A stretch of DNA of 64,000 nt, from contig NC_135909.1 in NCBI RefSeq assembly GCF_964194155.1, forward strand, positions 21,080,001 through 21,144,000, in the 5' to 3' direction. Every line of letters begins with the position of its first letter. Within the stretch, counting starts at the first letter, position 1. The position numbers and the translations under genes were made by a program. Below, in pieces: positions 11,947 to 44,781 of this stretch. Source of the DNA: Cetorhinus maximus. Taxonomy: Eukaryota. The notes beneath the pieces were generated by a model. The model was not told the DNA's origin and searched no databases. It saw nothing but the letters and a program-made list of their open reading frames with translations.

Positions 11947-11977
11947 TATAGTTTACATAATAAAAGATGAATATAAT

Positions 11978-16812: not shown

Positions 16813-16949
16813 GTCATTCAATTGTGCATTTAAAAAAGAATTGGAATACCGAAATGACAATATTTTCAGGCTGATCGGAGACGATCAGAGAAATGGGACA
16901 GGGCCCATACTCTGAGTCGAATGTCCTCTATCTGAGTTGTTGTTGAATG

Positions 16950-17229: not shown

Positions 17230-17234
17230 GAGAT

Positions 17235-18271: not shown

Positions 18272-21200
18272 TGTATACGAGCAGAGGAGAGACCTTATCC
18301 TGAGTGAGGCACAGCCAGAGTGAGTGTGGGTATTGGCAATTTGGTGCACAGTGGGAATTCGGTGCAGAGGAGAAGAGGTGTTCTTGCATTTTTTCTTTGC
18401 TATCCAACTTCTTAAATCTTCAGAGAGTGGTCTTGCCCTGCTGCCGCAGTAGAGGCTACAAGGGAGAGGAGTGACTGGTAAGTAGTGGGTAAGGTCGGGT
18501 AAGTATTTACTACTTTTATCACTTATAGTTTAAGGTCTTTTTGTGGTTTATAGTTTGTATATTCTGTAGTAACGAGGATCAGGAAAGAAGGGCCCTAGAG
18601 TGATTGATATAAAAGGCTTAATTTAAAGGGATAAGTCATGGCAGGAGAGCTCAAAGTCGTGGTGTGCTCCTCGTGCTCCATGTGGGAAGCCGGGAACATT
18701 TCTAGTGCCCGGGACCAGCATGTGTGCAGGAAGTGCATCCAGCTGCAGCTCCTGGAAGCTCGGGTTTCAGAGTTAGATGGCGGCTGGGGACACTGTGAAG
18801 CATCTGTGAGTCTGAGAGCATCGTGGATAGCACATTTAGAGAGGGGGTCACACCGCAGCAGAAGGGACTTGAGGAAGGAAGGAAATGGGTGACCACCAGG
18901 CAGTACAAGAGAAACAGGCAGGTCGTTCAGGAGTCCCCTGGGGTCTCGCTTGCAAATCGGTATTCCATTTTGGAGGCTGATGAGGGCGCTGGTTCCTCCA
19001 GGGAGTGCAAACAGAGCTAAGTTTCTGGCACCACATGCAGCCTGCCTGTACAGGAGGGGAGGAAGAGCAAAAGTAATAGGGGATACTATTGTCAAGGGAA
19101 CAGATAGGCGCTAATGTGGCTGTCAACGTGACTCTAGGATGATGTCTTGCCTCCCTGGTGCCATGGTCCGGGATGTCACTAAATGGCTGCAGGACATCCT
19201 GAAGAGGGAGGATGATAAGGCAAAGGCCATGGTACATGTTGGTACCAATGACATAGGTAGAAAGAGGGATGAGGCCTTGCATCAAGAATTCAGTGAGTTA
19301 GGCAGTAGACTGAAAAGCAGGACCTCTCGGGTTGTAATCTCTGGATTACTCCCAGTGCCACGTGCTAGCAAGCACAGAAATAGGAGAATAATGCAGATGA
19401 ATATGTGGCTTAAGAGTTGGTGCAGGAGGGAGGGTTTTAGATTCCTGGATCATTGGGACTGTTTCTGGGAAGGTGGGACCTGTACAAGCGGGACAGTCTA
19501 CATCTGAACCTGAGCAGGACTAACATCCTTGTGGGCGAGTTTGCTAGTGCTGTTGGGAGGAGTTTGAACTAATTCGGCAGGGGGAGGGGACACAGAACAT
19601 TAGCAGAATAGGGACACATCATAATACAGTAAAACAATCAAGTCAGAGGCAATACAGCTGCATTAAGTTTCAGTGGAGTAAGGCAAGTCAGGATGGCCTA
19701 TACTTTAATGCCAGGAGTATTATAGGTAAAACGGATGAGTTAAGGGTGAGGATTGACATATGGAATTGTGATATAACAGCCATCACGGAGACGTGGTTGA
19801 GAGAGGGGCAGGATTTGCAGCTCAAGATTTCGGGATATTGAATCTTCAGGCGAGACGGGGAGGGGGTAAAAGAGGCGGAGGCATTGCATTATTAGTTAAG
19901 GAGTCAGTTAATGCAGTAAGGAGAGATGATATCTTGGAGGCAACATCAAATGAAGCTTTCTGGACAGAGCTTAGGAATAAAAAAGGGGCAGCCACATTGT
20001 TAAGTGTTTATTATAAACCCCCAGATAGTCAGCGGGAAATTAAGGAGCAAATATGTGCACAATTTGCGGAGATGTGTAAAAACAATAGCAATAGGATAAT
20101 TACATTTGGTGATTTCAACTTTCCCAACATTAATTGAGATAGACATAGTGTTAAGTGGAGGGATTTCTTGAAACGTGTACAGGAGAACGTTCTAGGTAAA
20201 TTTGTAGAGGGTCCAACAAGGGACGGTGCATTGCTGGACCAAATTCTGGGGAATGAAGCCGGACAGGTGGCTGAGGTGGTAGTTGGGGAGCATTTTAGTG
20301 ATAACGATCACAACATGGCACAATTTAAGCTTGTTATGGACAAAAAGATAGACAAGTTGCAAAAAAAAAAAATGTTTTGGATTGGGGTAGAGTGGATTTC
20401 AGTAAAATAAGGTGGGTCTGGCCAAGGTAGACTGGGAACAGCTACTTGTGGGGAAATCAACAAAGGAACAGTGGGGGGGGCGTTGAAAAAGGAAATTGGG
20501 AGGCGACAAGCTCAACATGTTCCCTCTAGGGTGACAGGAAGGAGTAACAAGCCCAGAGAACCATGGATGACCCAAGATATTCAGGATACCATGCGAAGGA
20601 AAAGAGAAGCTTTTAGCAGGTAGAAGGGGAACAAATCAGCAGAGGCTTTAGTGGAGTACAGACAGTGCAGGGTGGAGATTAAGAAAGCAATTAGCACAGC
20701 AAAGGGAGGATATGAGAAAGCTCTTGCTAGTTAAAGTAGGGAAAATCCCAAGACATTCCATACGTATATCAATGGGCAGAGGATAACCAGGGAAAGAGTA
20801 GGGCCCATTAGTGACCAAGGGGGAAATCTATGGATGGAGCCAGAGGAGATCGGTAGAGTGTTGAACGAATTCTTCACATCCGTCTTCACCCAAGAGAATG
20901 AGGATGAAGGTGTGGAACTCAGGGAGAGAGACTGCGAGGTTCTTGAGCAAATTGATATAGGGAGTTACAAGGTATTGGAGGTTTTGGCAGGCTTAAAAGT
21001 GGACAAATCTCTAGGTCCGGATGATTTGTGTCCCAGACTGCTGAGGGAGGTAAGGGGGGAGATCGCAGGGACTCTGACCCAAATTTTTAATTCCTCTCTG
21101 GCCACAGGGGAGGTGCCAGAGGACTGGAGAACAGCTAATATGGTTCTGCTATTTAAGAAGGGTTGTAGAGGTAAGCCAGGGAACTGCAGGCCAGTGAGTC

Positions 21201-22572
21201 TCACGTCAGTAGTAGGGAACCTATTGGAGAAAATTCTGAAGGAGAGAATTTATCTCCACTTGGAGACGCAAGGTTTGATCAGGGATAGTCAGCATGGCTT
21301 TGTCAGAGGGAGGTCATGCCTAACAAATTTGATTGAATTTTATGAGGAGGTGACCAGGTGTGTAGATGAGGGTTGTGCAGCTGATGTAGTTTATATGGAT
21401 TTCAGCAAAGCCTTTGACAAGGTCCCACATGGGAGACTTATAAAGAGGGCAAACGCACATGGGATACAGGGTAATTTGATGAGGTGGTTCACAATTGGAT
21501 TAGTTGTAGGAGACAGAGGGTGATGACAGAAGGATGCTTTAGTGAGTGGAAGCCAGTGTCCAGTGGTGTACCACAGCGATCTGTGCTGGGTCCCCTAATA
21601 TTCGTCATTTATATAAAAGACATAGATGACTCTGTAGGGGATAGGATTAGTAAGTTTGCGGATGACACAAAGATTGACCGGGTGGTTAACAGTGAGGTTG
21701 AGTGTCTTGGGCTACAGGAAGATATAGACGGGATGGTCAAATGGGCAGATAAGTGGCAGATGGAATTTAACCCTGAAAAGTGTGAGGGGATACACTTTGG
21801 AAGGAATAATTTGACAAGGAAGTATTCAATGAATAGCATGACACGAGGACGTTCTGAGGAACAAAGGGACCATGGCGTGTGTGTCCTTAGATCTCTGAAA
21901 GCGGAGGGGCATGTTAATGGGGTGGTGAAAAAGGCATTTGGGACAGATGCCTTATCAATCGAGGCATAGATTACAAAAGTGGGGAGGTCATGTTGGAGTT
22001 GTATAGAACCTTGGTGAGGCCACAGCTGGAGTACTGTGTGCAGTTCTGGTCGCCACATTATAGAAAGGATGTGATTGCACTGGAGGGGGTGCAGAGGAGA
22101 TTCACAGGATGTTGCCTGAGATGAAATGTTTAAGTTATGAAGAGAGGTTGGATAGACTTGGGTTGTTTTCGTTGGAGCAGAGAAGACTGAGGGGTGACCT
22201 GATCGAGGTGTGCAAGTTTATGAGGGGCATGGAGAGGATGGATAGGGAGCAGCTGTTCCCCTTTGCTGAAGGGTCAGTCATGAGGGGACACAAGTTCAAG
22301 GTGAGGGGCAGGAGGTTTAGGGGCGATGTGAGGAATAATTTTTTGACCCAGAGGGTGGTGACGGTCTGGAATGCACTGACTGGGAGGGTGGTGGAGGCGG
22401 GTTACCTCACATCCTTTAAAAAGTACCTGGATGAGCACTTGGCACGTCATAACATTCAAGGCTATGGGGCAGGTGCTGGTAAATGGGATTAGGTAGGTAG
22501 GTCAGGTGTTTCTCATGTGTCGGTGCAGACTCGATTGGATGAAGGGCCTCTTCTGCACTGTGTGATTCTGTG
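18272..22572 (+). mobile_element. Near full-length CR1 LINE (5'UTR, ORF1 ~18638-19600, ORF2 APE-RT to 22492, 3'UTR), frameshifted
   Basis: ORF1 CSSCSMWE...CRKC and VHVGTNDIG; ORF2 GDFNFPNI, RPVSLTSVVG, QHGF, YMDFSKAFDKVPH, GVPQ.SVLGP, FADDTK; tail TTCTGTGA; TSD aaatcgtgct (18262-18271) / aaatcatgct (22573-22582). Confidence 0.95.
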
Positions 22573-23892
22573 AAATCATGCTATATGTGTTAAGCGCAGA
22601 AATAAAAAGGGGGCAGCCACACTACTGGGAATGTACTATAGATCCCCAAATAGTGAGATGGAACTAGAAGAGCAAATATGTAGGAAAATTTCGGAGTGCA
22701 AAAACAGGAAGGTAATAATAGTTGGGGACTTCAACTACTTGAATATCAATTAGGATACAAACAGTGTAATAGGCACAGAGGACATAAAATTCTTCAACTG
22801 CATTGAGTAGAACATTTTTAGTCGGCATGTAACAAGGCCAGTGAAAGGGAGTGAAATTCTAGATTTAGCCATAGGAAATGAAGCTGGGCAAGTGGATGAA
22901 GTCGCAGTGATTGACCATTTTGGCCATAGTGACCATATTACAGTTCGATTTAGCATAATTATGGAAAAGGATGAAGATAGAACAGGAGTAAAAGTTGTAA
23001 ATTGGGGAAAGACAAATTTTATGAAGCTGAGAGGTGATCTGGAGAGTGTGGACTAGTTACAGATCTTAATGAGCAAGAGAATAACTAAGGAAAGGGTAGG
23101 GCCTATCAGAGATGTATATGGTAACTTGTGCGTTGATACTGATAATGTAGGCAGGATTCTTAATGAGTACTTTGTCTCTCTCCTCACGAAGGAGAGGGAT
23201 GTTCTGGAGGGTTTGACATCCTTGAAGTTAGATAAATAACCAGGGCCAGATGGGTTGTATCCCAGGCTGTTAAAGGAAGCCAGGACAGAAATAGCGAATG
23301 CTCTGAGGACAGTTTTCCATTTCTCCCTAGATACATTCGAGGTACCAGAGGATTGGAGGTCTGTGAACATTGCACTGTTATTTAAAAAGGGCGCAAGGGA
23401 TAGGCCAAATGATTATAGGCCAGTCAGCCTGACTTCAGTGGTTGGAAAATTATTAGAATCAATCCTGAGAGACAGGATAAACTCTCGCTTAGAAAGGAAT
23501 GGATTAATCAGAGCGAGTCAGCATGCTTTTGTTAGGAGAAGGTCGTGTCTTACTAATTTAATCAATGCTTTTGAGGAAGTAACAAGGATGACTGTGGGTA
23601 AAGGAAGCATATCGAATGCTTTCTTTTATTGGATGAGGCATTGAATACAAAAGCAGGCATGTAATGCTGGAATTGTATAAAATACTGGTTAGGCCACAGC
23701 TGGCATTTTGTGTACAATTCTGGTCACCACATTGCAGGAAGTATACAATTCCTCCAGAAAGCGCACAGAGGAGACTTACAAGAATATTGCCAGGGCTTGA
23801 AAATTGCAGCTATGAGGAAAGATTGGATAGACTGGGGTTGTTTTCCTGAGGAGGCTGAGGATGACCTGATTGAGGTGTACAAGATTGAGGAG

Positions 23893-24080
23893 TTTTTGGT
23901 ATATTAATTCATGGGATATGGGCTTTGCTGGCTGGGCCAGCATTTGTTGCCCATCCCCATTTTCCCTTGAGAAGGTGGTGGTGAGCTGCCTTCTTGAACC
24001 ACTGCCGTCCATGTGGTGTATGTAGACCCACAGTGCTGTTAGGGAGGGAGTTCCAGGATTTTGACCCAGCGACAGTGAAG
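23893..24080 (-). mobile_element. Short 3'-end copy of the LINE family at 28975-31823, inserted into the outer CR1
   Basis: Reverse complement of 31645-31823; approximate TSD gaggagt / aaggagt. Confidence 0.75.
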
Positions 24081-25011
24081 GAGTCTAGACAGAGTAGACA
24101 GGGATGCTCGGTTTCCCCAAGGAGAGAGGCTAATTACAAGGGGACAGAGATTTGAGGTGATTGGTTGAAGGATTGGAGGGGACATGAGGAAAGATTTCTT
24201 CACCCAGAGGGTGGTGGATGTTTGGAATTTGCTGCCTGGTTTGGTGGTGGAGGCAGAAGCCCTCAGCTCATTTTAAAGGTACCCGGATCTGCACCTAAAG
24301 TGCTGTAACCTGCAAGGATCCGGACCGGGTGCTGGAAGGTGGGATTCGAATGGGCAGCTCGTTTTTTTTCTTTTCGCCCAGCCCAGGCACTAAAGGCTGA
24401 GTGGCTTCTTTCTGTGGTGTAACTTTCCTATAGTTCTATTGTTCTATGGAGTCAACACCTTCAGGAGAGGATAGTGGAACCAGTGAGTGTCGAACTGAAC
24501 CCAGCCAGAGTCAGCACCTTCAGGGGAGGAGAGAAAAGTCGATGAAAAGGAAAATAGCTGGAGTTGGTGCGATGGGTTTGGATTTCTGCACTGGGAGGAG
24601 GAAGTGTGTGTGGGACATGGTTTTACAGCTTTGGGGGAACAAGAGAGGAAAGAATGTTCCAGAGAAATTAAATTGTTCTGAATTTCTATCCTGTATTTAA
24701 TGATTTTTAAACTCCTTTTACAGGGTAGAAGGGGAGCATCTGCAGACAGAACACTCATTCCTCGGAACCTGAATATGATAGGTCTTTGAATGTGGAATGA
24801 GAAATATTTGTCTGTTCCCTCCTTGGGAAAAGATTTCATACATCAGTGTGACTGGAAAAGCACCGAGACACACACACCCCCCCGAGTGAGAGTGTTCCAG
24901 TGCACTGACTGTGGAAGTAGCTTTAAACAGTTATACAGCTAGAAAAAGGATCACATTATTCACAGTGGGGAGAAACCATACACACGTGTGCATGGACAAG
25001 GCTTCATTTGA

Positions 25012-26058
25012 ATGTCCGACCTGGAGAGACACAAGGGCTCCTGCACTGCGGAGAAACCGTGGAAATGTGGGGACTGTGGGAAGGGATTCAGATCTCCATC
25101 CCTACTGGAAACTCATCGACGCAGTCACACTGGGGAGAGACCGTTCATCTGCTCCGAGTGTGAGAAGGGATTCACTCACTCATCTGCCCTGCTGAAACAC
25201 CAGCGAAGTCACACTCTGGAACGGCCTTACACCTGTTTCCTGTGTCAGAAAGGATTCACAACGACATCCAATCTATCCGCACACCAGCGAGTTCACACTG
25301 GGGAGAGGCCGTTCACCTGCTCCGTGTGTCAGAAAGGTTTCAAAACTACATCCAACCTATTGACACACCAGCGAGTTCACACTGGGGAGAGGCCGTTAAT
25401 CTGCTCCAGGTGTGGGAAGGGATTCACTCAGTCATCCCAGCTCACTAAACATCAACTTGTCCACACTGACCAGAGACCGTTTCAGTGCCCTGTGTGTGAG
25501 AAGAGCTTTAAAAGCACAAAGCAGCTGCTGGAACACCAACACACTCACAGTGGGGAGAGGCAATTCCCCTGCTCCGTGTGTGGGAAAGCATTTCCTCGGT
25601 TATTCCATCTGCAGCAACACCAAGTAGTTCACACTGAGCAGAGGCCTTTTCAATGCCCTGACTGTGAGAAGAGCTTTAAAAGCAGCAATAATCTGCGGAA
25701 GCACCAACGCACTCACTCAGGAGAGAGGCCGTTCACCTGTTCTGTGTGTGAGAAGACATTTAATTGTTCATCCAACCTATTGACACACCAGCGAATTCAC
25801 ACTGGGGAGAGGCCATTCATCTGCTCTGTGTGTGGGAAAGGATTCACTCGGCCATCGAACCTCACTGAACATCAACTAGTTCACACTGAGCAGAGACCTT
25901 TTCAATGTCCGGACTGTGAGAAGAGCTTTAAAAGCAGCAATGATCTGCGGAAGCACCAACGCACTCACTCTGGGCAGAGGCCGTTCCCCTGCTCTGTGTG
26001 TGGGAAGGGATTCACTCGGTCATCCAATCTGCTGCAACATCAGCGAGTTCACATGTGA
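25012..26058 (+). CDS. C2H2 zinc-finger protein, 12 tandem fingers, no KRAB/BTB/SCAN domain visible
   Basis: Intact 348-aa ORF with 12 CxxC-x12-HxxxH fingers and TGERP-type linkers; splice acceptor ccttttacag at 24714-24723; start codon uncertain. Confidence 0.9.
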   Translation: MSDLERHKGSCTAEKPWKCGDCGKGFRSPSLLETHRRSHTGERPFICSECEKGFTHSSALLKHQRSHTLERPYTCFLCQKGFTTTSNLSAHQRVHTGERPFTCSVCQKGFKTTSNLLTHQRVHTGERPLICSRCGKGFTQSSQLTKHQLVHTDQRPFQCPVCEKSFKSTKQLLEHQHTHSGERQFPCSVCGKAFPRLFHLQQHQVVHTEQRPFQCPDCEKSFKSSNNLRKHQRTHSGERPFTCSVCEKTFNCSSNLLTHQRIHTGERPFICSVCGKGFTRPSNLTEHQLVHTEQRPFQCPDCEKSFKSSNDLRKHQRTHSGQRPFPCSVCGKGFTRSSNLLQHQRVHM

Positions 26059-27594
26059 CTGCAGGGGTTGGATTCTGCTGTCAATGCTGCTGTTAATCAC
26101 ATCCAGGACTGAACCATGTTCATTCTGACAGTCAGATATTTTGAGATTGATTCAATAATTAATCTAGTTTTAAATACATTATGTTGGGTCCTTAATTTCT
26201 CCAAGTTAAGTGGAGACTAATTGATGTCCTGTTACTGACTGTTCTATATTTGGGTCTTTTCCCCCTTACAACTTGATTATTTCAGTTATCATCCCTTCAA
26301 TTACTCTCAGGGACAAGTCTCAGCTCCCCGTACCTTCCAGAGTGCCTGTCCTAGACTTGGTATTCAGGAAAGGTATCAGTAACATTCCCGGGAGCACTAA
26401 ACACAAAATCCAGTCTGTTAATCACTTTCAGCTACTGGACATAGTGTGTGTCCTACAGCATCTCTCTCACCTTCGATGTGTGAATAAACATCACACCTAT
26501 AAACCTGGTTTCAATTTAATTTAATTCAATTTAATTCAAGCTACTGCCATTATAAATCTGTAGCAATTTATTTCAATCATTTCATGTTTAATATTGAATT
26601 GGGATTTATTTTGTGGCAATCTTTCGATGTCTGGATCAATCAGTATTTCTGTTGCAAACGAGTCAGCCTTTTCCGAACACTCGGAATAAGGTGATGGTGA
26701 TATCACAAAAAGAGATCAGTGGAGCTTGAAGTCAGCACCTGACTCACACCAGGTTGAGTCTGATTTCCTTCCACTCTGATTAATGTTGTTCTTAATCGCC
26801 ATCAGCCTCACGGACCCAGATTGGAAATGACTGGAGGCATTACAAACATAGCAACTTATAAATTAGGAGCAGGAATCGGCCATTCGGCCCCTCCAGCCTG
26901 CTTCCCCCATTCAATAAGATCATGGCAGATGTTCTTCTGGCCTCAACTCCCACTTTCCTCCCTACCTCCGATACCCTTTAACTCCTTTTTCAATCAAGAA
27001 TCTATCTAACTTTGCCTTAAAATGTTCAATGGCTCTGCCTCCAGCTTAACTCCAGGGAGAGACAGAGAAAGGCATCTAAAAACAGGACAGGTCTGCTGTA
27101 AAATAACCAGGCATTTAAAAGTGCCGTGCCTTCAGAACAGAAGAACTTTCTCTGCTCCCTGTAAACCTGATTCCAGCTACTAAACTCACATGTTTACGTA
27201 ACCTCCGGCAATTCCACTGTGGAAGCCATTGCAGCTGCCAAGACAATTCTATAACTTAAAAACCTTCATTTCAGACAGCACAACATCTCGACTTCAAAAT
27301 ATATCAGGCCTGCACTGAGTATGGACTAAAATGATCCAATTTTATAAGTACTGTTCTATCTTCATTTGTATCTCATCCACATGTGTATGTGTTAGCAACT
27401 TTATCTATTCTTCAGTAAATTCCAGAGCAATAGAGTAAAATAAACTAATCATTTATTTTTTTAAGGAAAAAGGTTTTTCCACTGGCTTATTTACAGTTGA
27501 ATTTCTCACTCCATGGGTAAGGAAATATACACAACTTACAAATATATTGTTCATGGGCAACTTCAGGGAAACACCTTTAAAGCATCCGTGACAT

Positions 27595-28460
27595 TATTAA
27601 TAACATCCATAGACATTCCACTGTCAACTACTTTAGTAACCTCTCCCAAAAATCAGTCCTATTCATCAGGAATGACCTCCCCTTTACAAATCCATGTTGG
27701 CTTTCTCTGAACAGCTGAAAAACTTCGAGGCGTACAGACTCCCTATTCTTCATAGTGAACTCTCGGAATTTCCTGACAACAGGGCTTAGTCGAACTGGCC
27801 GACAATTCCCTGGTTTCCATCTGACTCCTTTCTTAAATGTTGGAATGACAGGCAATATTTTCCAATCTGAGGGAATGGTCCCCAAGTGGAGAGAAGTTTG
27901 AACACTTTTGTTCTCAACTCCTTCCTTTAATTCCCTGCAATGAAACAATCTCCTCTTGGAGTTTTGTTACTCGTTAGTGCCATTAGTTTCTTCATTACTA
28001 TTATCTTGCTTATGTGAACTTTGTTGAGTCCTTCTTCCCGATTCAATAGTAGATTCCTTGGGATACCTGAAATGCTGACTCTTCCTCTATTGCACATACT
28101 GAAACAATGTCTTAAACTTCCTTATTTTCATTGACAACAGTACTGCTAACAGTTTTCAATTGGCCCACACGCTCTGATCATTCTCCTTCTCCTAATATAA
28201 TTGTAAAAGTTTGTGTTGATTTTGAAATCTATTACATTTTTATTATACTGCGTTTTAGGAGTTTGTTATCTGCTTTGTTCCCATTTCCTGCTCTTTGTAT
28301 CTTTCCTATTCACCAGGATCTCTCCTTTCTTTGCAGTTATGTTTGCAGAGTTTCATGTTGTTTCTTGCCTCCTTCCTTGTCCATTAGGCAAATAGATCTC
28401 TCGAAGGTTAATGGTAGAAGCTGGCTCTGCACCATGTTAAACTATTTGTGAACAGTTCCT
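27595..28460 (-). mobile_element. Old CR1 RT fragment
   Basis: PSDWK....PTFKKG.R.KPGNCRPV.LSPVV.K, ESQHGFVKGRS. Confidence 0.8.
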
Positions 28461-28650
28461 CCTCACCATTTGTCTTTTTCCTCATGAACAGATTTGCCCA
28501 GTTTACTGTGGACAATCTCTGTCTCATTCCCATTGAATTCAGCCTCACTGAAAATGAGAAACTTACTAGCTGTTTCATGCTTCTTCCTTTCAAGCATTGA
28601 GTTGAACTCAATCATATTAACACCACTGGCTAAGTGCTCATGCACTCTCA

Positions 28651-28940
28651 TGGGGAGGTGGTGGAATAGTGGTAATGTCACTGGGCTAGTAATCCAGAGA
28701 CCCAGTCTAATTCTCTGGGGGCCATGGGTTCATATCCCCCATGGCAGCTGGTGGAATTTAAATTCATTTAATTAAATCGGGATTTTTAAAAAGTAGAGTG
28801 ACCATGAATCGATTGTTGTAAAAACCCATCTGGTTCACTCATACCCGTTAGGGAAGGAAATCTGCCGGGCCTGGCCTGGCCTACACCTGACTGCAGACCA
28901 ACAGCAATGTTGTTGACTCCCAGCAAGCCACTCAGTTGAT
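28651..28940 (+). mobile_element. tRNA-derived SINE head and body, directly upstream of the LINE ORF
   Basis: A-box-like tggaatagtgg, B-box-like ggttcatatccc; same family as 42432-42752 (aaaacccatctggttcact...agggaaggaaatctgccg). Confidence 0.75.
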
Positions 28941-28974
28941 CAAACTGTTAAAAAGCAGAAAAAGGAATGAAACT

Positions 28975-31823
28975 GAATGGACCACCCGGCATCGAACCTA
29001 GGTACCGGAAATTATACCCAGCCTAGACCCTCCAAAAGCCTCCTTACTAACATCTGGGGGCTTGTGCCAAAGTTGGGAGAGATGTCCCACAGTCTAGCCA
29101 AGGCACAGCCTGACATTGTCATGCTCATGGAATTATACATTACAGACAATGTCCCAGACACCATCATCACCATCCCTGGGTATGTCCTGTCACCAGTGGT
29201 GGTGCCACTGTGCTATACAGGTGGGAGGGAGTTGCCCTGGGAGTCCTTAACTTCGACTCGGGAGCCCATGAAGTCTCTTGGCATCAGGCCAAAAATGGGC
29301 AAGCAAACCACCAGATGGTTACCACTTGCGGTAACTGGCACCCCCACCACCAATCCACAACAACCCCATCCCCTCAGCTGATGACTCAGTACTCCTCAAA
29401 GTTGAACACCATTTGGAGGAAGAATGCTACTGTGCTAAATGGGCTAGATTTTGAACAGATATAACACCTCCAAACTGGGCATCTGAAGTGTAGTGGGCAT
29501 CAGCAGCAGTATTGTACTCAACCGCAAACCATCACCTCATGGCTTGGCACAACCTCCACCGTACCATTATCATCAAGTTAGGGGATCAATGCTGGAACAA
29601 TGAAGAGTGCAGGGGGGCCATGCTCAGAGCAGCACCAGGTATACCTAAAAATGTGTTAACCTGTGTACCTATAATACAGGACTACTTGCATGCCCGGCAG
29701 CATTAGCAGCAAGTGAGAGAGCTAAGCGATCCCACAACCAATGGATCAGCTGTAAGCTCTGCAGTCCTGACACGTCGATGCATGAATGCTGGCTGGCAAA
29801 TAAAAAACTCTCAGGAGGAGCCGGTTCCACAAATATCCCCATCGTCAATGATGGGGGAACCCAGCACGAGTGCGAAAATAAAGCTGAAGCATTTGCAACT
29901 GCCAGAAGTTCCAGGTGGATGATTTATCTCAGCCTCCTCCTTTGATCCTCAGCATCTCAGAAGCCAATCTTCAGCCAATCTGATTCACTCCAGGTGATAT
30001 CAATAAACAGCTGAAGGCACTAGACACTGCAAAGTCTATTGGCCCTGACAACATACCGGCAATAGCACTGAAGACTTGTGCTCTAGAATTGGCTGCACCC
30101 TTAGCCAAACTGTTCCAGTAATAACAAGGCTTTGTCTCCCAGTGTGATGTCCAGTGGAGGCAAAAGCGGTAAAGGTCTTGGCATAGGAGGTGTTAAAAGG
30201 CACCGAAAAGTCTTCCGAGATAATATCCAGGGAATCACTAAACCTACCATTCATCACCTCACTCAATGTGAAGGTGTTGAACACATTTCCAGCCTCATTT
30301 ATGAGGAAACTCACAGGATTGTCAAGGTTTCCTTGGAAAATATCATCTGGGACTCGGTCAACTACAAAGAACATGCTAAACAAAAGACATTTACAGCTAC
30401 ATCACTGACATCGATCCAGCTATGTGGAAAATTGCCCAGGTTATGTCCTGTCCAGAAAAAGCAGGAAAACTCCAATCCGGCCAATTATCACCCCTTCAGT
30501 CTATTCTTGTTCATCAGTGAAGTGATGGAAGGGGTCATGGGCAGTGCTATCAAGTGGCACTTACACAGCATTAATCTATTCAGTTTGGGTTCTGCTAGGG
30601 TGTCTCAGCTCCTGACCTCATTACAGCATTGGTCCAAACATGGACAAAAGAGCTGAACTCCAGGGGTGAGGTGACAGTGACTGCACTTGACACCAAGGCT
30701 ACATTTGATCGAATGTGACATCAAGGAGCCCTATCACAAATGATGTCAATGGGAATCAAGGTAAAATAACTGTCCACTGTTTGATGCCATACCCAGCATA
30801 AAAGAAGATGGTTGTGGTTGTCGGAGATCATCTCATCCTCAGGACATTGTTGCTGCAGTCCCACAGGATAGTGTTCTAGGCCCAACCATCTTCAGCTGCT
30901 TCATCAATGGCCAATGACCTTCCCTCTATGATAAGGTCAGAAGTGGGATATTTGCTGCTGATTGCACTATGTTCAGCACCATTCCTGACTCCTCAGGCAC
31001 CTAAACAGTCCATGTCCACATGCAGCAAGGCTTGGGCAAGATTCAGGCTTGGGCTGACAAGTGGCAAGAGACATTCACACCACAGAAGTGCCAAACAATG
31101 ACTATCTCCAACAAGAGAGAATCTAACCATCTCCCCATGACAGTCAATGACATTACGCTTGCTGAATCCCTGACTATCAACATCTTGGGGGTGTTACCAT
31201 TGACTAGAAACTGAACTGGATGAGCCATATAAATAATATGGTGACAAAAGCAAGTCAGAGACTTGGAATTCTGTGGCGGGTAACTCACCTCCTGACTCCC
31301 CAAAGCCTTTCTACCATTGACAAGGCACAAGTCAGGAGCGTGATGAAATATTGTCCACTTGCCTGGATGAGTACAGCTTGACATGATCCAGAAGAAAGCC
31401 CACTTGATTGGTACTCCATCCACCACTTTCAACATTCACTTTCTCCACCACCATCCCCAGTGGCAGCAGTGTACCATCTACAAGATTCTCCACAGCAACT
31501 CCCAAAAGGCTCTTTCACCAGCAACTTAAAAACCCGCCACCTCTACCACCTAGAAGGACAGGAGCAGCAAATGCATGGTAACACCACAACCTGCAAGTTC
31601 CCCTCCAAACCACACACCATCCTCACCTGAAATTATATCACCGTTCCTTCACTGTCACTGGGTCAAAATCCACAAAATGCCTTCCTAAGAGCACTGTGGG
31701 TGTACCTATACCACATGGACTGCAGCAGTTCATAAAGGCAACTCACCATCACCTTCTCAAGGACAATTACATAGGAACAACAAACGATGGTCTAGCCAGC
31801 GATACCCACATCCCACGAATGAA
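28975..31823 (+). mobile_element. CR1/L2-superfamily LINE (APE and RT), degenerate, carrying an H4 insert
   Basis: LLTNIWGLVPKLGE, NPANYHP.SL, VPQDSVLGP, WADKWQ.TF.PQKCQ; 3' tail shared with the local SINE family. Confidence 0.85.
30121..30398 (+). pseudogene. H4: Histone H4 retro-fragment (26-nt leader plus codons 1-84, ATG at 30147) inside a LINE
   Basis: [37 protein letters not shown]...[10 protein letters not shown] aligns without gaps to canonical H4 (56/84 identical by hand count); C-terminus and stem-loop missing. Confidence 0.93.
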
Positions 31824-31829
31824 TTCAAG

Positions 31830-32450
31830 AAGCCCTTTAGGCTGTTACCTAACTCTGGTCCATTCATCTTTGTTAGATCTAATATAATCACCCACTCTTG
31901 CTGTTTCTCTGACAGGAATCTATCCCAGACACACTCAAAAAACTCCCTATATTTCTGACAAGTGTTATTCTTATCCCAATATACATGGAAGTTAAAATCC
32001 CCCAATGAAACCATTCTTCCTTTGCTACATGCTTGTCTAATCTCAGCATGTTTACAAACAGCCACTTCCAGGCTACTACCTGGAGACATATACATAACTT
32101 CAACTAAAGTGTTAAAAATATTCCATTTCTTAATTCTATCCATAAAGCTTCCACTCCTTGCTGATCTCAGCACATATCCTCTCTTATGATAGAACCAATT
32201 TCATCTGCAACAGTTAAGGTTACTCTTCTCCCTCTACCATTTTCCCTATCTCCCTGTAGACCTAATTATCTGGCATATTTATTTCCCAGTCCTGATGGTC
32301 ATGGAACCTGGTCTCTCTAGAAGCAACCACGTCATATCCTTCAAGTTGTATCTGTGTCTGCAATTCATTCAGTTTGTTCCTCAGATTCTGTGCGTTTGAA
32401 TAAAGAATGTTTGTTTGAGCCATTACCCCTATCCTGTCCTTCTGCTCGAA
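31830..32450 (-). mobile_element. Old CR1 APE fragment
   Basis: ILYSNAQNLRNKLNEL, YDVVA..ET, LGDFNFH. Confidence 0.75.
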
Positions 32451-33029
32451 CATTTTATCAACACATTTCCTATCCAAATTCATGTGACATATCTGCCCGC
32501 TAAAGCTGGCTGGTGAGTCCAAAACTAGGACACACTCACACAATAAGTTTCAGCTACTTTGGACATTTTTTTCACTCCAAGTGTTTTGGATCTTTGGAAT
32601 TGTCTCCCCCAGAGAGCTAGGGGTGCTCAGCTACTGTCTGTATTCAAACTGAAATCAATAACATGTTTGGATAATAAGAGACCTGGAGATAGAGTGGGGA
32701 GGTGCACTTCATTGAGTTAAGGTAATGGATCCGCTGTACTGTATTCAATGGGGGAACAGCAGGGAAGGGCTGAGTGGCTGACCGCTGCTCCAATTTCTAA
32801 TGTTCTTATGCTCATCTCTCTGCAATGTGCTATGTTCTGGGCATTTCTAAAACTTGTTTTCCTTTTCTTTGACAACCGTCTCTGTAACTGAAGCTGTTCG
32901 GTCAACTTGCAAATTGATCTTAAATATTTGAATAATTTGCAAGCCATTGCTGCTGATGTGCTGGGTGTATTTCCATATAGCTCACAAACCACTCAGGGGA
33001 GGCCAAATCGCAGCCTTGTTAAAAAACAT

Positions 33030-34280
33030 GAAAAAGGCCATTTAGCAAATTAATGGAAGGGCATTAGAGGAAAATAGCTAAACAAAGTTATGAAATGAAT
33101 AAAATTTATAGGTGATTAATCATGTGAGATTTAAACTACAGAAAATGATCTGGGAAGAAAAGGTAGGAAAGGGGAAAAGGGAATGGAATATTTACAGTGT
33201 GTTCAGGACTTACCCAGTAGATAGGAAGTCCAGCAAGGCAGTGGTGATGGGGTCTGGTCATTGAGGAATAAACCAGAGCAGATATGAGAAGTCAGCACAG
33301 TTCAAATCAATCATCGAACGGAACAACCAGGTTTGAGGTAATGATTGAGAAAAATGTAAAGAAGAAAAGCCAAAAATAGTAAATTGCAATAAAATAGTTC
33401 CGGAGGGTTGGGAATATAACTTATGAAGATAAACCTGGACAGAATATTTATGAACAAAGAGATAGAACAGCAGTGATCAAACAACAACAGGAGAAATACA
33501 TTCTGCTAGAACAGGAACCAATTATCCAATAGTGAAATTCCCTGGATAAGTAAAGGGATCAGGGCAAAACTGAAATTAAAGTAAAAGGCCTGTGCTGACG
33601 GACGTTGACAATAAAGGAGAGGATGATAAATGGACAAATCAAGAGGTTAGACAGCTGGTCAAATAGAAGTTCCAGGATTAAGTTATGAAGGAATATAAAA
33701 GCAAATAGGAAAATATCTGATGGACACAGAAACAACAAAGGGCAAATGAGAATATGGAAAGAGTCTCAGAAGGATGCACAAGAAAAAAGCTCAGGTAATG
33801 ACAGAGTTTAGGGAGAAATATTGGATTGTTACTTGGCCTCAGTTTTTAAACCAGATAAACTGACCACATGGATTAATATCATTCCAAATAGATTTTAAGA
33901 CATCTAACAAAGAAAGGAGGGGAGAGCAATGAAACATGGAAATGGTAAATCTTTGGAACTAGATGAATTACATCCATGTATGCTAAAACAGAGAAGGAAG
34001 ACTCCACTGGGACAGATGAATTCAGATCTAAACCCCACGCCTCAAGGTGCTTAAGATGGGGTGCAGGGCACAGTTTCTCCAGACTAATACTGAAGTTTTA
34101 AGGATTAAACGATGAGAATTGATTGTGTAAATTAGTCTTGCACTCACTTTATCTAGAACCGATTAAGAGATGATATTTGGAAATGTTTGAGCTGATTATA
34201 GGATTAAATAGGATAGAGAGAAACTAATTCTTCAGGTGGGTGAATCCTGAAGACGGTATTCCCCAAACATTAGAGCGAGG
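33030..34280 (+). mobile_element. Highly decayed CR1-like ORF2 fragments
   Basis: A-rich decayed sequence with residual CR1 motifs (ttacttggcctcagttttt, gatgaattacatccatgtatgctaaaa). Confidence 0.45.
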
Positions 34281-36343
34281 CCCCCCATCTCTGCCACTGC
34301 TATATCTCCCTTTCTGATTGTTTCAGTCCCAATTCATTCTCTATCACTATTTCTGCACCTCTCCCTCTCCCCTTTCTCTATAGCCATCTCACTTTCTCGG
34401 TCTTTCCCCCTTCTCTCTGCTTCGATTATCATTTTCTCCTCTCTTCCACATTCTCCATCTTTTGTCTTCTATGCAACTATTTCTTTTCCCCCTCCTGTGT
34501 TTCCATACCTCGTTCACTGTGTCTCACTCTCTCTTCTCTTGCTAAGAATCTATCTTCCTCTCTCTCAGTTACATTAATTTTCTTCTTCACACTGTAATCC
34601 TCTGCCTTCCCTCTGTCTTGTTTTATTTCACTCTGTTCCTTCCATCCCCTCTCTCTCTGTCACTCTCTCTCTCTTCCCATGTGTACCTTATAAATTGTCA
34701 AAATTGCTCATGCATCAGGTCAGTTTCCACATGAACCCACCCTGTGCTCCAAGAACATTATATGTGATGAGCTCAGCTTCTCCATTCCCTGTTTTTAATG
34801 AGCTGGCCTGGATGTTCCAGGCTCCATCGGTGGCTTCAAGAACTGTAACATTTTGCTAGAAGCCAGAGGAACATTTGCTTTTGATTCCAATGTTTGCTGC
34901 ACCTTCTGCCTCCCCATCTCCTAGATTCAATTCATGACATCATCACTAGGCGATATAGCCACCAGCTTATGTACATGTGCTGCCTGGGGAATGTAAAACC
35001 ACAGGACACAGTCTTATACTGTGGGTCAGCCATTATGGTCTAAGATTAAGATCAATTTCTTCACTGAAAGGGTTGTGAATCTTTGGCATTTCCTAACCCA
35101 GGCATTGAGTATATTGAAGAAATAATTTGACAGATGTTTGGATACCAAGGTGATAAAGGGATATGGGGGTAGGTCAGGAAGGTGGAGATAAAGTAAAATA
35201 TTGGCCATTATCATACTGAGTGGCAGCACAGGCTCTGGAGTAGCCCACTCCTGCTCTTATGTCTGATGTTTTCTTCATGTCCACATGCCTGTGATGTGTT
35301 TTGCTTGGTATATCTGATTAACCTTGATTTTTTTTTTTCCCTTTATTTTTGTCTGGCTATCTCTATAACTGAATTAGTTCATTCAGTTTACAAACTCATC
35401 TGAAACATTTGAATAGCTGGCAGGGAGTTGATCCTGATCTGTGGAGCTTATCTCCATACAGTACACAGGGTGAAGCACAAGGAAGAGTGAAGACCATCCA
35501 GGTTCAATAACACAAAAAATACCATTCTACAGGATAGATAATATTGGAAAAGCATTGGAGGGAAATATTTAAACAAAGCTATGGAATGAGTAAAATTCAG
35601 AGCATAAAAATCATGGGAGATTTCAAAGCAAGTGTTTTGTCAGGAAGATGTCGGGAAAGTTGAAAACTGGAATTGGGTAGTTATCCTGCGTTCAGGCTGC
35701 ATTTCTTCCCCAGAACCTCGGAAGCCCAACAAGAGATGAATCACTGCTGCATCTAAGAGTTTAACATGAAGCAGAACAGATAAGAACATTAAAGTTTCAG
35801 TGAAAATCGAGGCAATAATACTCACAGCCAAATAAAACTTATACAATAATTGAAGAAGATTCTAGTAAGGAAAGGCAGAAATGTAATATATAGAAAAAGC
35901 TTAATATTAGGAGATGGGAATACGACTTGGAAAGATAAACTGGAAAGAATATTACTGGACAAAGAGATAGAACAGCAGTGGGAATTATTTCAAATGGAGA
36001 TCAGTGGACTTCAGGAGAAATAAATTGCATGAAAAAGATACAGCGCAGCCACTATTAAAACACATCTTCTTCTTGAGCTCTCTGCCCGCAGGCAGACTGA
36101 CCCACAACATCACAATCTCCATTATGGGAAGGGTAAAGAGGCAGCTCCTGAATCTACCCCAGCTGGAGCGGGGATTGAATCCTGTGTTGTTGACAACAAC
36201 CTGTTTCACACCAGCTTTCCAGCCAACTGAGTCCCCATGGAGTACTAGTTGCTGTGGCTGCCTGCATTTTTACATGTATTATGGCCCAGTGATGGTAAAT
36301 GCTGAGCTGCTCCAATCTCAGAAACTTGAAACCCTGCCACAGC

Positions 36344-37082
36344 TGTTCTTGCAATTTGTATTTTTTATTTCGAGATGCGTGCCTTGAATTCAGTAGTAAT
36401 AAGACAACTGAGTCTTAGAGGGTTTTTACCAAACTAAATTAAACATTTATTAATAAAATAAACAATTGTAAGCACATACATAGGACTAAAAATTACGACT
36501 ATAATAACTCCTCGAATCCCTAATTAATCTAGCTCACAGTTACACCTCCGGTAAGGCAACAGTAAAACAACATAGATTTCAACAGACCCAGTCAAAGCAG
36601 ACAATACCCTGGACGGCAATATTTAAAATGGACTATTTTAGCTTCAGTTCCTGGAGACAGCAGCTTGGTACACAGAGGCTGGAGGCTTTTCACACATGTT
36701 AGACCTTAGAATCCTTCTTCTCACATATGACCTCATCTGTTTTATACAGGTTTCTCGCATTTTAACGTAAATCCCATTCTTCCAATATGTCTTTGCAACT
36801 TTTTCCATAATATAAATTTTCCATAGTACTCCCATTATCAGTAATCTTTGGGAAATATGAACACACTGTTTGGCTTAACCTCTGTTGGCTCAGTGTAGCA
36901 TCTTACAATCTCTTTGAAATTCACGACTTTGGTTTCTCTAAAAATGCAAATGTTCTTCACACCTCACATTCTAAAACTTCAGCCATATTTATGTACTTAG
37001 CATTTCAAACCAAGTTTCCCTTCGGATACATCAGAGCACCCAGACCAGCTGTCTATAATTCAATTCAGCGGCATCTGTAACA
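36344..37082 (-). mobile_element. Probable solo-LTR-like insertion inside the Harbinger remnant
   Basis: Starts TGTT and ends TAACA on plus; AATAAA on minus near 36447; both junctions carry ACAGCTG, so the TSD/terminus split is ambiguous. Confidence 0.4.
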
Positions 37083-38616
37083 GCTGCTTCCATGATACAG
37101 ATCACTGCCTCCTCCAGAGGGCTCAGGTGATGCAGGCGTGCATGTCCTCCTCTGGTTCTGCTCTGCTCCCTGTGGTTATGGATCACATTGTCCTGTGAAA
37201 GACCAAATAGAGAATGTCAGTGAGTGTGCTGAGTGTTTGAGTGATTTGTGTTTGAGTGATGTGGGTATCACAGTTGGAGGAGGTGGAGTTGTGTGAAGTC
37301 TCTGAGAGCTGTGTGCGAGGTTGGCAGCATTTCTGAGTGTTTGAGGCGGAGCATCTGAATGTTAGACCCAAGTCCTGACCGCCCGGGATTGCTAATGGGT
37401 GAGTGATGGGAGTGTGGTGTATGAAGCAGTGTGAGAGGTGGCTACTGTGGTGTGTAGGGAATGTCACGTGAAGATGTGGCAAACAGTCAGGATGATACCA
37501 ATCAACTACAACAGGACAGAGATAGACTAGTAGAATGGGCAGGCAAGTGGGAGATGGAATTTAATACAGAGAAGTTTGAGGTGATGCAGTTTGGAAGAAG
37601 GGATGGGGGAGGAAATCAGTTCAAAATAGTATGCAAGGTCATAGGGATGTGGGGGTTTATGTACATGGGTCTTTGAAGGTGGCAGCAGGTTTTGAGAATA
37701 CTTAGCAAAACATTTGGAACTTTGGGCTTCATAGATAGAGGTATTGAGTACAAAAACAGGGAAGTTATGATGAACATTTATAAAGCCCTGGTTAGGCCAC
37801 AATTAGACTATTGCTTCCAGTTTTGGTCACTATGCTTTAGGAATGAAGTGAGGGTCCCCGAGAGGGTTCAGAGGAGATTTCCTGGAATGGTTCCAGGGAT
37901 AAGGGATTTCAGCTGGAAGGTTAGGTTGGAGAAGCTGGAGGTTGGAGCTGGGGTTGTTCTCGTTGCTGAGAGGGAGATTGAGAGTAGGTTTGATAGAAGT
38001 GGACAAGATTATGACAGTGTCAGATAAGGTAGACAAGAAAACCTGTTCCCATCAGCAAATCGTACAAGAACTCAGGTACACAGATTTACAGATTATGGGG
38101 GCGGGGAGGGGGGGTTGTAGAGTTTGGAGGAGGGAGAAATGAAGCACATTTTATTTTTGACTCAGCAAGTGGTGATGACCTGGAAGTCGCTGCCTTCGAG
38201 GTTAGTAAAAGCAGAGATAAACAATGGTTTCAAAAGGAACTTGTTTGAACGCTTGGGGGAATTAAACATGCAGGGATATGGTCATCGAGCAGGTCAATGG
38301 GACTGGCTGGATTGCCCTACACAGAGCTGGCTTGGACTCTTCTGTGCTCTATGACATCATCATTCCTGACCAAAGTGAGGGAATTGAGCTTCAGGTGACC
38401 CTGCTGTCAGCTCATTGGGGTTAGACTCTGGGAATTGAGCACCATAATTGCCTCCTGATGGTGTTGCTTTAGGGTCTCTGGCACAGAGCACCCCCACCCC
38501 ACAGTTCCCCATACACTGCAGAGAAGTGGGCTCTCTCTTCCATCCAAGCCCTGGACTGTTGCCTTTAGAGCTGCATCCAAGAACCTGGGATCCCTTTCTC
38601 TTCCGTGTTGCTCCAT
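37083..38616 (-). pseudogene. Decayed two-exon Myb/SANT-like gene of PIF/Harbinger type, intron split by a CR1
   Basis: Exon 1 (~38360-38616) MEQHGRERDPRFLDAALKA...VLNSQSLTPMS*QQ...NSLTLVR; exon 2 after TTTCACAG (~37192) DNVIHNHREQSRTRGGHARLHHLSPLEEAV, resembling the RAPRFSD..LE / HN.RE..RTGGG / LSPLEE pattern of this family. Confidence 0.6.
37455..38355 (+). mobile_element. 5'-truncated CR1 LINE (3' end)
   Basis: LQQDRDRLVEWAGKWEMEFNTEK, YKALVRPQLDYC.QFWS, ERVQRR; tail ttctgtgctctatgac. Confidence 0.9.
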
Positions 38617-38863
38617 TTCGAGTGCTTTGTTTTACAGGCAATTTTTGCAAGTCGGCAGCAGCTTCCTTACAATTAGTGCAGTTCCCCTTTAAGAGGGGCA
38701 GGCTCGCTGGAACAGTAGCCATGCAAAACTGCTTTTCCTCCCTTTCAGGTATTCAGCAACCTAACCTCACAGTGAGCTCTTGCCTGAAGGCTACACTCAT
38801 GAAAATGAGTATAGAGGAAGAAGGGCAACACCTTTTACCCATAATAAGTTCAGTGAGTGACTC

Positions 38864-38867
<4 letters not shown>

Positions 38868-38897
<30 letters not shown>
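38868..38897 (+). repeat. (TG)n microsatellite
   Basis: About 15 TG units. Confidence 0.95.
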
Positions 38898-38898
<1 letters not shown>

Positions 38899-39759
38899 TT
38901 ATAAAAACAGCAAATTCTCCGAGATTAGATACAGAACATTTCTACTCCAGCATCCTGATACTGACTCTGAGGAACTCCATGGAAGATAATGAAAACTCTC
39001 TTCCTGCTGATTCAATTTCTGCTCCTGACTCAGCCAAGTCCGACTGCAGGGAATGGGTTTCTCCATCCTGATAGTAAACACCGGCACATTTCCCCAATCC
39101 CTTCACAGCCAGTGTTCAGACAGGATTCTTTTCAAACTACATTATTCTCTTTCAATTTCACAGTTTAATTGTTTGAACATCACAATATAATTGGTTGAAT
39201 TGTTATTTATGAAAGACTGAAGAATTTAATGTAAACCAGTTGCACAGGTAAATTCCCTGAATGATTAGTCACTATCTGAGCGGCTGGAGGGGATGGTGGG
39301 TGTTGAGGGCTGATCCAAATAGACCAACAAGAAAAGGGCAGTGCCGAGTTGGTGGATCACAGCCGGATGAGTTACTCAGTTGGGAGACTCTGTAATTGGC
39401 CTCAGTACCCAGGAACCACAGAGGAGTAACTCCCAGTTGCTGCTCCCCATCGCTGCTACCTGCTGCAGTGTGAGAGTGCAGATTGTGAGTGAGGACAGAG
39501 TCGGCAGTTCCCTCAGTCCCTTTCCTCCACATGCACTGTCCAGTCTAACAGGTGAAGAATGAGGAATTCGGAGCGATACTGGAGGTGTCTGTGGGATCAA
39601 TCCCCAGGCATGAGTCAGCTTTTCATAATGAGGGCAAGGAGTGAGAGTAAGAGGGTTTAAGACAGGTTTATTTAAATTGATTAATACTGCAGCTTTCACA
39701 CAGATTGGGTTGTGAGAACACAGATTGTGTAGATAAGAGAAGTGGTTTATTTATCCATT

Positions 39760-40172
39760 GTCACTCTGCCTCAGTTGGGAGTTGAGTGAACAAATTGTGG
39801 GTTGATGTCCCACTCCAGTAGATCCAGACCAGCACTGGGGGAGTGCTGCACTGTTGGAGGTGTCATGTTTTGGATGAAAAGTTAAACTGAGACCCTGTCT
39901 ACCTGTTAATACCAAAGGTTATATCTGGTACATTATTTGAAGAGCTGGCAGTTCTCCCCGTGTCTTGGAACAACATCACTCTCTCAACCAACATGACCAG
40001 AAACTCCTCACCCCGTCAAATCTCATTCACTCTTTGTGAGACTTTGCTGAAAGCTGATTGGCTTCAATGTTTCCTATAGAACAGTATCAGTACTTCAGAA
40101 GCAATCGCCAGTCTGTGAAACTCTTTGGACTCTTCTCATGACAGGAAAGGTTTGATATAAATGTCCGATTTT
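39760..40172 (+). mobile_element. DeuSINE-superfamily SINE (SacSINE1-like)
   Basis: gggagtgctgcactgttggaggtg..ttttggatga..gttaaactgag and gttctccccgtgtcttgg..ccctcaacc-type Deu-domain sequence; 3' end gaaagg..tatataaatg-like; family name is from recall. Confidence 0.65.
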
Positions 40173-41443
40173 TCATTTCACTCTCTCTGGTCTGAGATTG
40201 TGGGTCTGGTGGGGTCCAATCTGAGAAAAATCCCTTGGACTGCCCTTCCGGACAGAGAATGAGTCTGTACAGGTTGAGGGGAGGGAGGGATGTGTGGGTT
40301 TTAATTAAAAATAAAAGAGGTGAGGTTGATGTGTGATCCAGAGTCATTCCAGTAATACTGACAGAGTCAGCTTCAGGTTTTCACATTGATCTCCCTCCCT
40401 CTGTGTGCAGAAGAATCACTCAATTCATTCTTCATTTTGGATTTTAGTGTACAGGCGGGCTTGCTTTGTGAATGGAGGATAAACTGTTCAAAAGGCCTGT
40501 GAGGAAACTGGGGAGTTTCTCTTTAGAGAACCTGACCAGTCAATATGTTGTGTTCGAATACAGTGAAAGATCTGGTGATGGATTCCCAGCAGCCCGAGCT
40601 CTCCAAGTTCTTACTGCATGAAATCTTCGTTCCTGGGAAACAGGCTGTTTGATTGTTTCAGTCCAGTGAGCCCTGACCCTGTGTTCCTGCTGTCTGAATA
40701 ATGGGCTGTACTCTGAAATAAAACTTACTGCTTTGATCACAGCTTCATATCCATGTCTTGTTTCTCCTTAGGATCAGTGTGTCCCAGGACAAGGTGTTTA
40801 GGGATGAATGAGGCTGGGAGAAGATGTGGGAATTGCAAGGAATGGGAAGTGGGGAATCACTCCAGAGAATCTCTGAAAGTTCAGAATAACCCAATAAGGA
40901 AGGGACTGAGAGAAGACAGGGGTCTTAGGGTGTCAGCACTCTGACCATCCACAGAGCAAGCTATCTCACAAATATCAGAGGTGGGAGAAGGAGCGAAGGC
41001 GATGGTAGGCGTTTAAGGGGACGAGGAAAGTGGGTCGGGAATTGGTTCATGGGGTGGGGAAGGGTTTCAAAGGGAGGATTGGTGGCTAAGGGGCAGAGAA
41101 GGGGTTGGGAAGAGGAATGTTTTCGAACGTACGAACATATGAAGATAGGAATTCGGAGCAGGAGTCGGTCAATCAGGCCCTCGAGCCCGCTCTGCCATTT
41201 GATAAGATCATGATCGATCTGATCGCGGCCTCAACTCCACATTCCGCCTGTCCCCATAACCTTTCACTCCCTTGTCAGTCAGGGGAAAAAAATCACCCTG
41301 GCTGCTGCAATTTCAATAAGATGGACATTGTTGCAGATTGAAGGAGCATCTCCTTCACTCCCATTGAGGGAGCAGGAGAATCCAGCGGGAATTGCTCACT
41401 TTTCATGGCTTCCTGGGAATTGACCAAGTTTCGCTGGAAGCAG

Positions 41444-41513
41444 CAGCGAGACAGGGACTGGAATCCTCGGCCCTCAGATTACAAAGCTGATCCTTTCCCA
41501 ATGGGTCAGAGGC
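41444..41513 (-). pseudogene. Degenerate tRNA-Lys(TTT)-like sequence
   Basis: Reverse complement ...GGAAAGGATCAGCTTTGTAATCTGAGGGCCGAGGATTCCAGTCCCTGT vs Lys-TTT GTAGAGCATCAGACTTTTAATCTGAGGGTCCAGGGTTCAAGTCCCTGT. Confidence 0.5.
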
Positions 41514-44765: not shown

Positions 44766-44781
44766 GGCTCTTAAAAGAGCC
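44766..44781 (-). terminator. Histone 3' stem-loop of the H2B pseudogene
   Basis: Reverse complement GGCTCTTTTAAGAGCC followed by ACCCA and a purine-rich HDE-like GAAAAAGCTG. Confidence 0.92.

Follow-up and report, generated by a model that had tools for sequence, protein, structure and literature searches.

A tail-less copy of a variant histone H4 mRNA in a decayed LINE of Cetorhinus maximus, likely inserted by an L1-superfamily, Tx1-like enzyme

How part of a histone H4 reading frame came to lie in the reverse transcriptase (RT) gene of a LINE, with apparently nothing lost from the LINE, is the question raised by a locus in Cetorhinus maximus. The window, i.e. the whole stretch of DNA analysed, comprises 64,000 nucleotides (contig NC_135909.1, here C32, positions 21,080,001 to 21,144,000). 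A first-pass annotation had described a 26-nt leader and an H4 segment between two parts of the LINE, and this arrangement was confirmed: LINE sequence runs to 30120, the leader occupies 30121-30146, the ATG lies at 30147 and the LINE is resumed at about 30392-30398. The features, in window coordinates, are as follows.

28651..30120, + strand: 5′ part of the host LINE, a decayed non-LTR retrotransposon with an endonuclease remnant and the start of the RT; colinear with 16 non-chimeric genomic copies at about 70-89%
30121..30146, + strand: 26-nt 5′ leader of the variant H4 mRNA; its start is the fixed 5′ end of an H4 retrocopy family
30147..30391, + strand: H4 coding fragment of the I65/S69 variant, running from the ATG to about codon 81; it belongs to the old subfamily and is decaying
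30392..30397, + strand: ambiguous 3′ junction, in which H4 codons 81-83 resemble the LINE target; two candidate nick sites of the family target motif
30398..31831, + strand: 3′ part of the host LINE, with the remaining RT and 3′ UTR; non-CpG distance to the LINE consensus 0.159

The coding fragment was identified as H4 by a PDB match (E 4e-31). A sister copy of the host LINE gave a Pfam RVT_1 match, and by its motifs the LINE is probably of the CR1 group. The insert is absent from all 16 non-chimeric LINE copies. As had been stated, no poly(A), stem-loop or clear target site duplication (TSD) was found at the window insert. The leader could be aligned without gaps to the leader of the retrocopy family but not to the canonical H4 leader, so that the check for a DNA-level insertion was negative; base 30120 is either the A of the LINE or a mutated cap-type G. 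Compared with canonical H4 of the same genome, 28 of 84 residues differ, with neither stops nor indels. These counts hold, but two of the differences (V65I and A69S) were inherited from the variant source gene, and the open frame is not special, as the H4 part is interrupted by a stop or gap in 15 of the 24 chimeric copies described below. Of 45 base changes, 19 are CpG transitions. The window piece is identical to the old consensus of the family at 203/243 nt and to canonical H4 at 167/243; the mean non-CpG distance of the H4 part in the 24 copies is 0.089 to the old consensus vs 0.123 to the young one, the old set being closest. The ratio pN/pS, which had been proposed as a check, is about 0.58 in the window copy; it was not taken as a sign of selection, since CpG sites inflate pS and 15/24 copies are broken. 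Most likely, the fragment has no function.

The chimera was found in 24 copies at 90-100% identity by DNA search, 22 of them on C32 between 9.3 and 21.1 Mb and one each on C450 and C678. A search with the 5′ junction, as suggested in the annotation, gave 24 exact matches on these three contigs only (one-mismatch matches: 7 vs 4 in the control). The right flank of the LINE also gave 24 copies at the same places, followed by a drop to 80-82%. The 3.3 kb fetched around the chimera were common to all 23 other copies, and 20 kb were colinear in 10/10. Because all 24 chimeric copies have common flanks (at least 58 kb where tested), there was one insertion event, followed by amplification through segmental duplication in a histone/zinc-finger region. 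The proposal that a multicopy chimera would represent a LINE subfamily is thereby refuted, the copies sharing flanks far beyond the LINE. A paralogue of the duplicated unit lacking the insert did not come up. The unit includes the following features.

3367..61165, strand not applicable: duplicated unit, minimum extent; colinear in 2/2 extended copies, with indels, mostly 92-98%
25012..26058, + strand: C2H2 zinc-finger ORF with 12 zf-C2H2 stretches
58427..58915, − strand: open frame with an intact H2B gene and downstream stem-loop (Pfam Histone)

A second H2B copy at 44733-45158 (−), 93% identical to 58341-58765, has a stem-loop and a disrupted 5′ coding region and is likely a pseudogene. Genes for tRNA-Thr (4297-4370, −) and tRNA-Trp (12278-12351, −) also lie inside the duplicated unit, and a long purine-rich degenerate tandem array (9563-11050) and a 200-base gap (8529-8728) were observed in the window. 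Of the 150 H4 matches scored, out of 665 candidates, most lie on C32.

The leader and the H4 piece belong to a dispersed family of at least 111 distinct retrocopies of variant H4 (I65, S69), which have unrelated flanks and occur on most large contigs. The number is a lower bound, and TSDs were scored in 107 copies (four loci added later were left out and the duplicate L204 was dropped). A family of more than 1000 copies, suggested by 1404 first-look candidates, was rejected, most of these likely being canonical H4 genes. The family has a fixed 5′ end: in 75 of the 111 copies the first base falls at leader positions 1-4. In these 75 full-length copies the preceding base is a G 30 times and a C 29 times, which, from known retrocopy behaviour, may reflect a copied cap and a slightly upstream start, respectively. 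At the other end, 73/107 copies reach the 3′ UTR and 34/111 stop within the coding sequence, 25 of them around codons 65-67 and four at codons 78-85. A stem-loop or poly(A) was present in 0/111 copies, vs a stem-loop in 24/25 canonical H4 loci. TSDs with a score of at least 10 were found in 40/107 copies vs 1/316 shuffled pairs; they measure 11-21 nt, mostly 13-17 nt, and also flank 11 of the 34 copies ending within the coding region. In the remaining 67/107 no TSD was scored, and many young copies are among those without one. As to complementarity between the target and the RNA at the 3′ end of a copy, a trait of tailless retropseudogenes, the last 1-7 element bases are usually overlapped by the TSDs, as might also come about by chance. 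Most end points are A-rich and predicted to be single-stranded (0.65-0.98 unpaired at four of six points vs 0.41 overall; 0.80 at codons 65-67).

The RNA origin suggested for the window insert is supported by its leader, which begins at the fixed 5′ point of the family, and by the sister copies with TSDs. The accompanying statement that histone mRNAs are poor substrates for retroposition does not apply to this genome, with 111 family copies and canonical-type H4 retrocopies besides. Dispersed copies of the canonical C39-type H4 that end before the stem-loop were observed at L170 (C5:84.63 Mb) and L172 (C2:111.0 Mb), L170, which is flanked by short direct repeats, stopping just before it. Retroposition seems to affect canonical H4 mRNA as well. 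Another 3′-truncated H4 retrocopy was duplicated together with its flanks (L203 and L204; C12:23.0 and 23.1 Mb).

We consider it likely that the window insert is a 5′-complete, 3′-truncated and tail-less copy of the variant H4 mRNA, amplified to its present 24 copies by duplication of the segment. The variant source gene would have been expressed in the germ line and its mRNA mobilised in trans by an L1-superfamily, probably Tx1-clade, enzyme. This enzyme would have made its nick at a preferred site of a LINE that had already decayed, and priming inside the H4 coding region at the window junction would have left the copy 3′-truncated and without a tail. Against this reading speak the lack of a normal-length TSD at the window copy, the 67/107 sister copies in which none was scored, the predicted pairing at the end point of the window piece and a junction too eroded for its exact form to be fixed.

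To the enzyme several observations pointed. From the 40 TSD-bearing H4 copies the target motif GTSCAHC^WWCA was derived (offsets were left free in the fit; leave-one-out mean 5.1, sd 3.8), and the window site fits this motif at rank 21 of 1837 LINE positions (top 1.1%). At L058 and L091 a second element lies beside the H4 copy, flanked by the same TSD. This element, with 1753 first-look candidates, extends into an ORF2 that is 45% identical to a turtle APE+RT protein (P0017), which in turn matches human L1 ORF2p (E 8e-76); the host LINE is only 22.5% identical to the turtle protein. By way of the turtle homologue, the ORF2 is placed with the APE- and RT-bearing ORF2 of the L1 superfamily; the endonuclease region of the element itself was not recovered. 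Presumably, its C-terminal motif resembles that of Tx1, although a zf-RVT match was below the Pfam cut-off; judged by this motif and by its target preference, the partner element is probably Tx1-like. One target site (right flank) is common to 16/30 Tx1-like copies and 4/111 H4 copies. Of 36 3′ ends of the Tx1-like element, two map in the host LINE, and both lie at the window junction: L258 carries a TSD of 15 nt, and L254, which has no TSD, shares the left junction of the window insert and has lost four target bases. Because target sites are shared with the H4 copies and two copies of its own lie at the same LINE site, a Tx1-like enzyme of the L1 superfamily is likely to have made the H4 copies. 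The sampled Tx1-like copies are near-identical to each other (97-99% among best matches) and therefore probably younger than the window insertion.

The Tx1-like element (L245-L286) is young and abundant, strongly prefers a single site within another repeat and often forms tandem stacks; a full-length copy was not recovered among these loci. A tRNA-headed SINE of about 145 nt ends directly upstream of four H4 copies (L062, L076, L054 and L166) and always lies 5′ of H4. It stacks in tandem at regenerated target sites, as in L062 (C3:68.63 Mb), where one and the same TSD follows each of five units; in L166 it is the H4 leader that was duplicated as the target. The 3′ end of the SINE resembles that of the Tx1-like element, and the H4 3′ UTR seems to be alike. 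As copies with internal ends exist, we argue that this likeness is not required for copying.

At the 3′ junction of the window insert, resumption of the LINE at 30392-30395 requires 10 parsimony steps and resumption at 30388-30391 or 30396-30398 requires 11. A 2-nt duplication, a blunt join and a 1-nt loss cost 10 steps each; the cost rises to 11 for a 4-nt target deletion hidden by H4 bases of similar sequence. That nothing was lost cannot be shown at an ambiguous junction where a 4-nt loss is only one step costlier; the window copy has a TSD of 0-2 nt or a short target loss. Five of six junction bases match H4, but the junction is eroded and such a match may be due to chance. The motif scores at the two possible nicks, 6.6 and 8.4, were the two best among 30 positions scored. 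The end point of the window piece is a minor one in the family and predicted to be mostly paired (0.33 unpaired). Two junction haplotypes occur among the chimeric copies, in 18 and six copies; with 24 assembled copies and two junction types, an assembly artefact is unlikely. Behind the seamless appearance lies either microhomology with a duplication of 0-2 nt or the loss of 4 nt, hidden because the H4 bases are similar, the latter being suggested by L254.

The same junction might also have arisen from a longer or full-length H4 retrocopy with a normal 11-16-nt TSD, the 3′ end and second TSD of which were removed by a microhomology-mediated deletion before the duplication. Such a course would suit the 3′ UTR present in most family members, the resemblance of H4 codons 80-82 to the last LINE bases left of the insert and the sequence TTCCA, which the six-copy clade has at the junction as in the left flank. 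The deletion would, however, have had to stop only a few bases from where the insertion took place, while copies truncated near these very codons exist with TSDs (L150 and L151) and L254 has a TSD-less junction at the same site; we regard it as unlikely. Repair of a double-strand break with H4 RNA as template or by capture of cDNA, without an endonuclease nick, would be compatible with the missing TSD, the microhomology at the 3′ join and the many young sister copies that are also TSD-less. It is not needed for the window copy and appears quite improbable, as the insert has the standard 5′ end of the family and lies at a site that is used by the Tx1-like element and ranks near the top for the family motif.

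Insertion by the proposed nick in a decayed LINE was further supported by the ages of the two parts. The comparison of H4 and LINE divergence that had been called for gave unequal values: changes near-universal in the 24 copies, and hence older than the duplication, amount to 184/1674 (11.0%) in the LINE vs 10/221 (4.5%) in H4 with CpG sites excluded (p=0.002), and non-synonymous shared changes to 86/1029 vs 3/178 (p=0.0005). In the ORF2 of the LINE, three stops and at least six frame-breaking deletions are common to the copies. Part of the excess divergence of the LINE is subfamily difference (pS 0.157 > pN 0.084), and the LINE consensus was built from only 16 best matches. As the damage preceding duplication is more than twice that of H4, the host LINE was likely dead before H4 arrived. 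A double template switch by the RT of the host LINE (onto H4 mRNA and then back to the LINE), which might have founded a LINE subfamily, as the annotation had proposed on seeing the common orientation and near-exact resumption, is accordingly the least probable explanation and hardly credible, given this older damage, the flanks common to all 24 copies, the eight of 111 H4 family copies inside the host LINE family, which are inserted both in sense (six) and antisense (two), and published LINE-1 chimeras, which carry the foreign RNA 5′ of a 3′ LINE piece (10.1101/2025.02.02.635956). The locus is like the U6/LINE-1-type chimeras described in the consulted part of that work in that a non-LINE RNA is joined in sense to a LINE, but differs in having LINE sequence on both sides (1.5 kb upstream), an older LINE and no TSD around both parts. 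The window junction is an ordinary nested insertion amplified by duplication.

H4 variants are rare in vertebrates. The gene from which the family derives was looked for. Hallmarks of a coding source were found in the copies: the consensus of the young copies (1.2% from consensus) and that of the old ones (6.2%) differ by nine synonymous and no non-synonymous codons (p ~5e-6), and I65 and S69 occur in both. Judged by this codon comparison, the source is a gene under purifying selection, and it was recently active; a self-propagating, SINE-like master does not agree with a consensus that drifted only synonymously. Four family copies encode the variant protein unchanged, and the identical protein was found under four database accessions from sharks, Chiloscyllium punctatum and Scyliorhinus canicula being named. 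The H4 element was also covered by sequencing-run contigs of two other organisms. One such contig (X19, organism B, depth 4.8, from a presumed RNA run) spans the coding region, with seven synonymous changes and one non-synonymous change beyond those of the query, and is too weak to count. The GC3 of the family is 0.56-0.57 vs 0.65-0.88 for five other H4 genes.

A source with promoter and stem-loop was not found in the assembly by four DNA patterns, by a protein search in which 150 of 665 candidates were scored, by a degenerate codon pattern with 47 matches or by inspection of 210 kb of the variant histone cluster on C22; most pattern matches were inspected, and an exon-split or unassembled source would escape this search. 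Nor was the variant motif found in viral contigs. Two stem-loop H4 genes on C22 were rejected as the source. Both have S69 and one of them also I65, but their UTRs are different, and for the one that was compared with the family, 46-47 synonymous codon differences and three residue differences were counted. An intron-type H4 on C16 was rejected as only 77% identical. The plainest reason for the missing source is a gap or collapse in the assembly; alternatively, the gene may have been lost since the last burst or may lie on sex-limited or germ-line-restricted DNA; the assembly gap at the C22 cluster falls within an H1-like gene. A bolder reading, which we hold to be doubtful, is that the copies are the footprint of a conserved and still-living shark germ-line H4 variant, read over a long time by a target-specific Tx1 enzyme, whose gene lies on sex-limited or germ-line-restricted DNA missing from the assembly.

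The C22 region (2.51-2.57 Mb; L317, L320-L339) was observed to be a small cluster of stem-loop histone genes, with two variant H4 (T54V/A69S in one, S1T/V65I/A69S/K79R/M84L in the second), a divergent H2B, two H2A and several basic H1-like genes. An apparent decayed retrocopy of the second variant lies on C13 (L319). At L171 (C16:76.29 Mb) a canonical H4 protein is encoded with a splice-acceptor-like sequence directly before the ATG, which makes it a candidate replication-independent H4.

The closest known system is formed by the tailless retropseudogenes of therian mammals, which include 51 histone-derived ones in human (PMC5322556); among vertebrates, the consulted part of that paper names only mammals and anole. 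The shark copies share with them the lack of oligo(A), TSDs (in 40/107 family copies, but at most 0-2 nt in the window copy), A-rich and single-stranded preferred 3′ ends, a model of internal priming and a histone template (PMC5322556). They differ from the human histone tailless retropseudogenes, described there as 5′-truncated, in being mostly 5′-complete, and from the therian class in occurring in a shark, in deriving in more than 100 copies from one H4 variant and in being made by a likely Tx1-type enzyme (PMC5322556). The target consensus given for therian L1 is TT/WAAAAWW (PMC5322556); it was not found here, the shark motif being GTSCAHC^WWCA, as above. The shark copies work like tailless retropseudogenes, made by another enzyme. 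For the Tx1-Mar/SINEU pair of crocodilians, as far as the consulted text goes, the partner was likewise inferred from target preference inside other repeats, and duplicated, truncated and unaltered targets were reported (PMC4494074). The reasoning on the partner is the same here, as are tandem insertions sandwiching a TSD and the range from TSD through target truncation to unaltered targets; SINEU is a self-propagating, snRNA-headed SINE, whereas the shark cargo is a protein-coding histone mRNA with only synonymous change in its consensus (PMC4494074). In cartilaginous fishes 14,081 retrocopies have been counted, with CR1 or Tx1 named as likely drivers outside mammals (10.64898/2026.06.26.734816); in the accessible part of that work the link is a correlation across genomes and the words histone and tailless do not occur, while here it consists of shared target sites. 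Our literature search returned no paper on shark histone retrocopies or on the H4 I65/S69 variant, though the species table of PMC5322556 could include cartilaginous fish.

With this family, retroposition of histone mRNA without a tail is extended to a shark, and shared target sites tie it to a Tx1-like enzyme and not to mammalian L1. Intact retrocopies are easily annotated as H4 genes, and the identical proteins listed in databases for other sharks may be retrocopies too. The copies also reveal a variant of H4 that is kept under purifying selection; its parent gene, which the searches of the assembly did not find, is the best lead that they offer.
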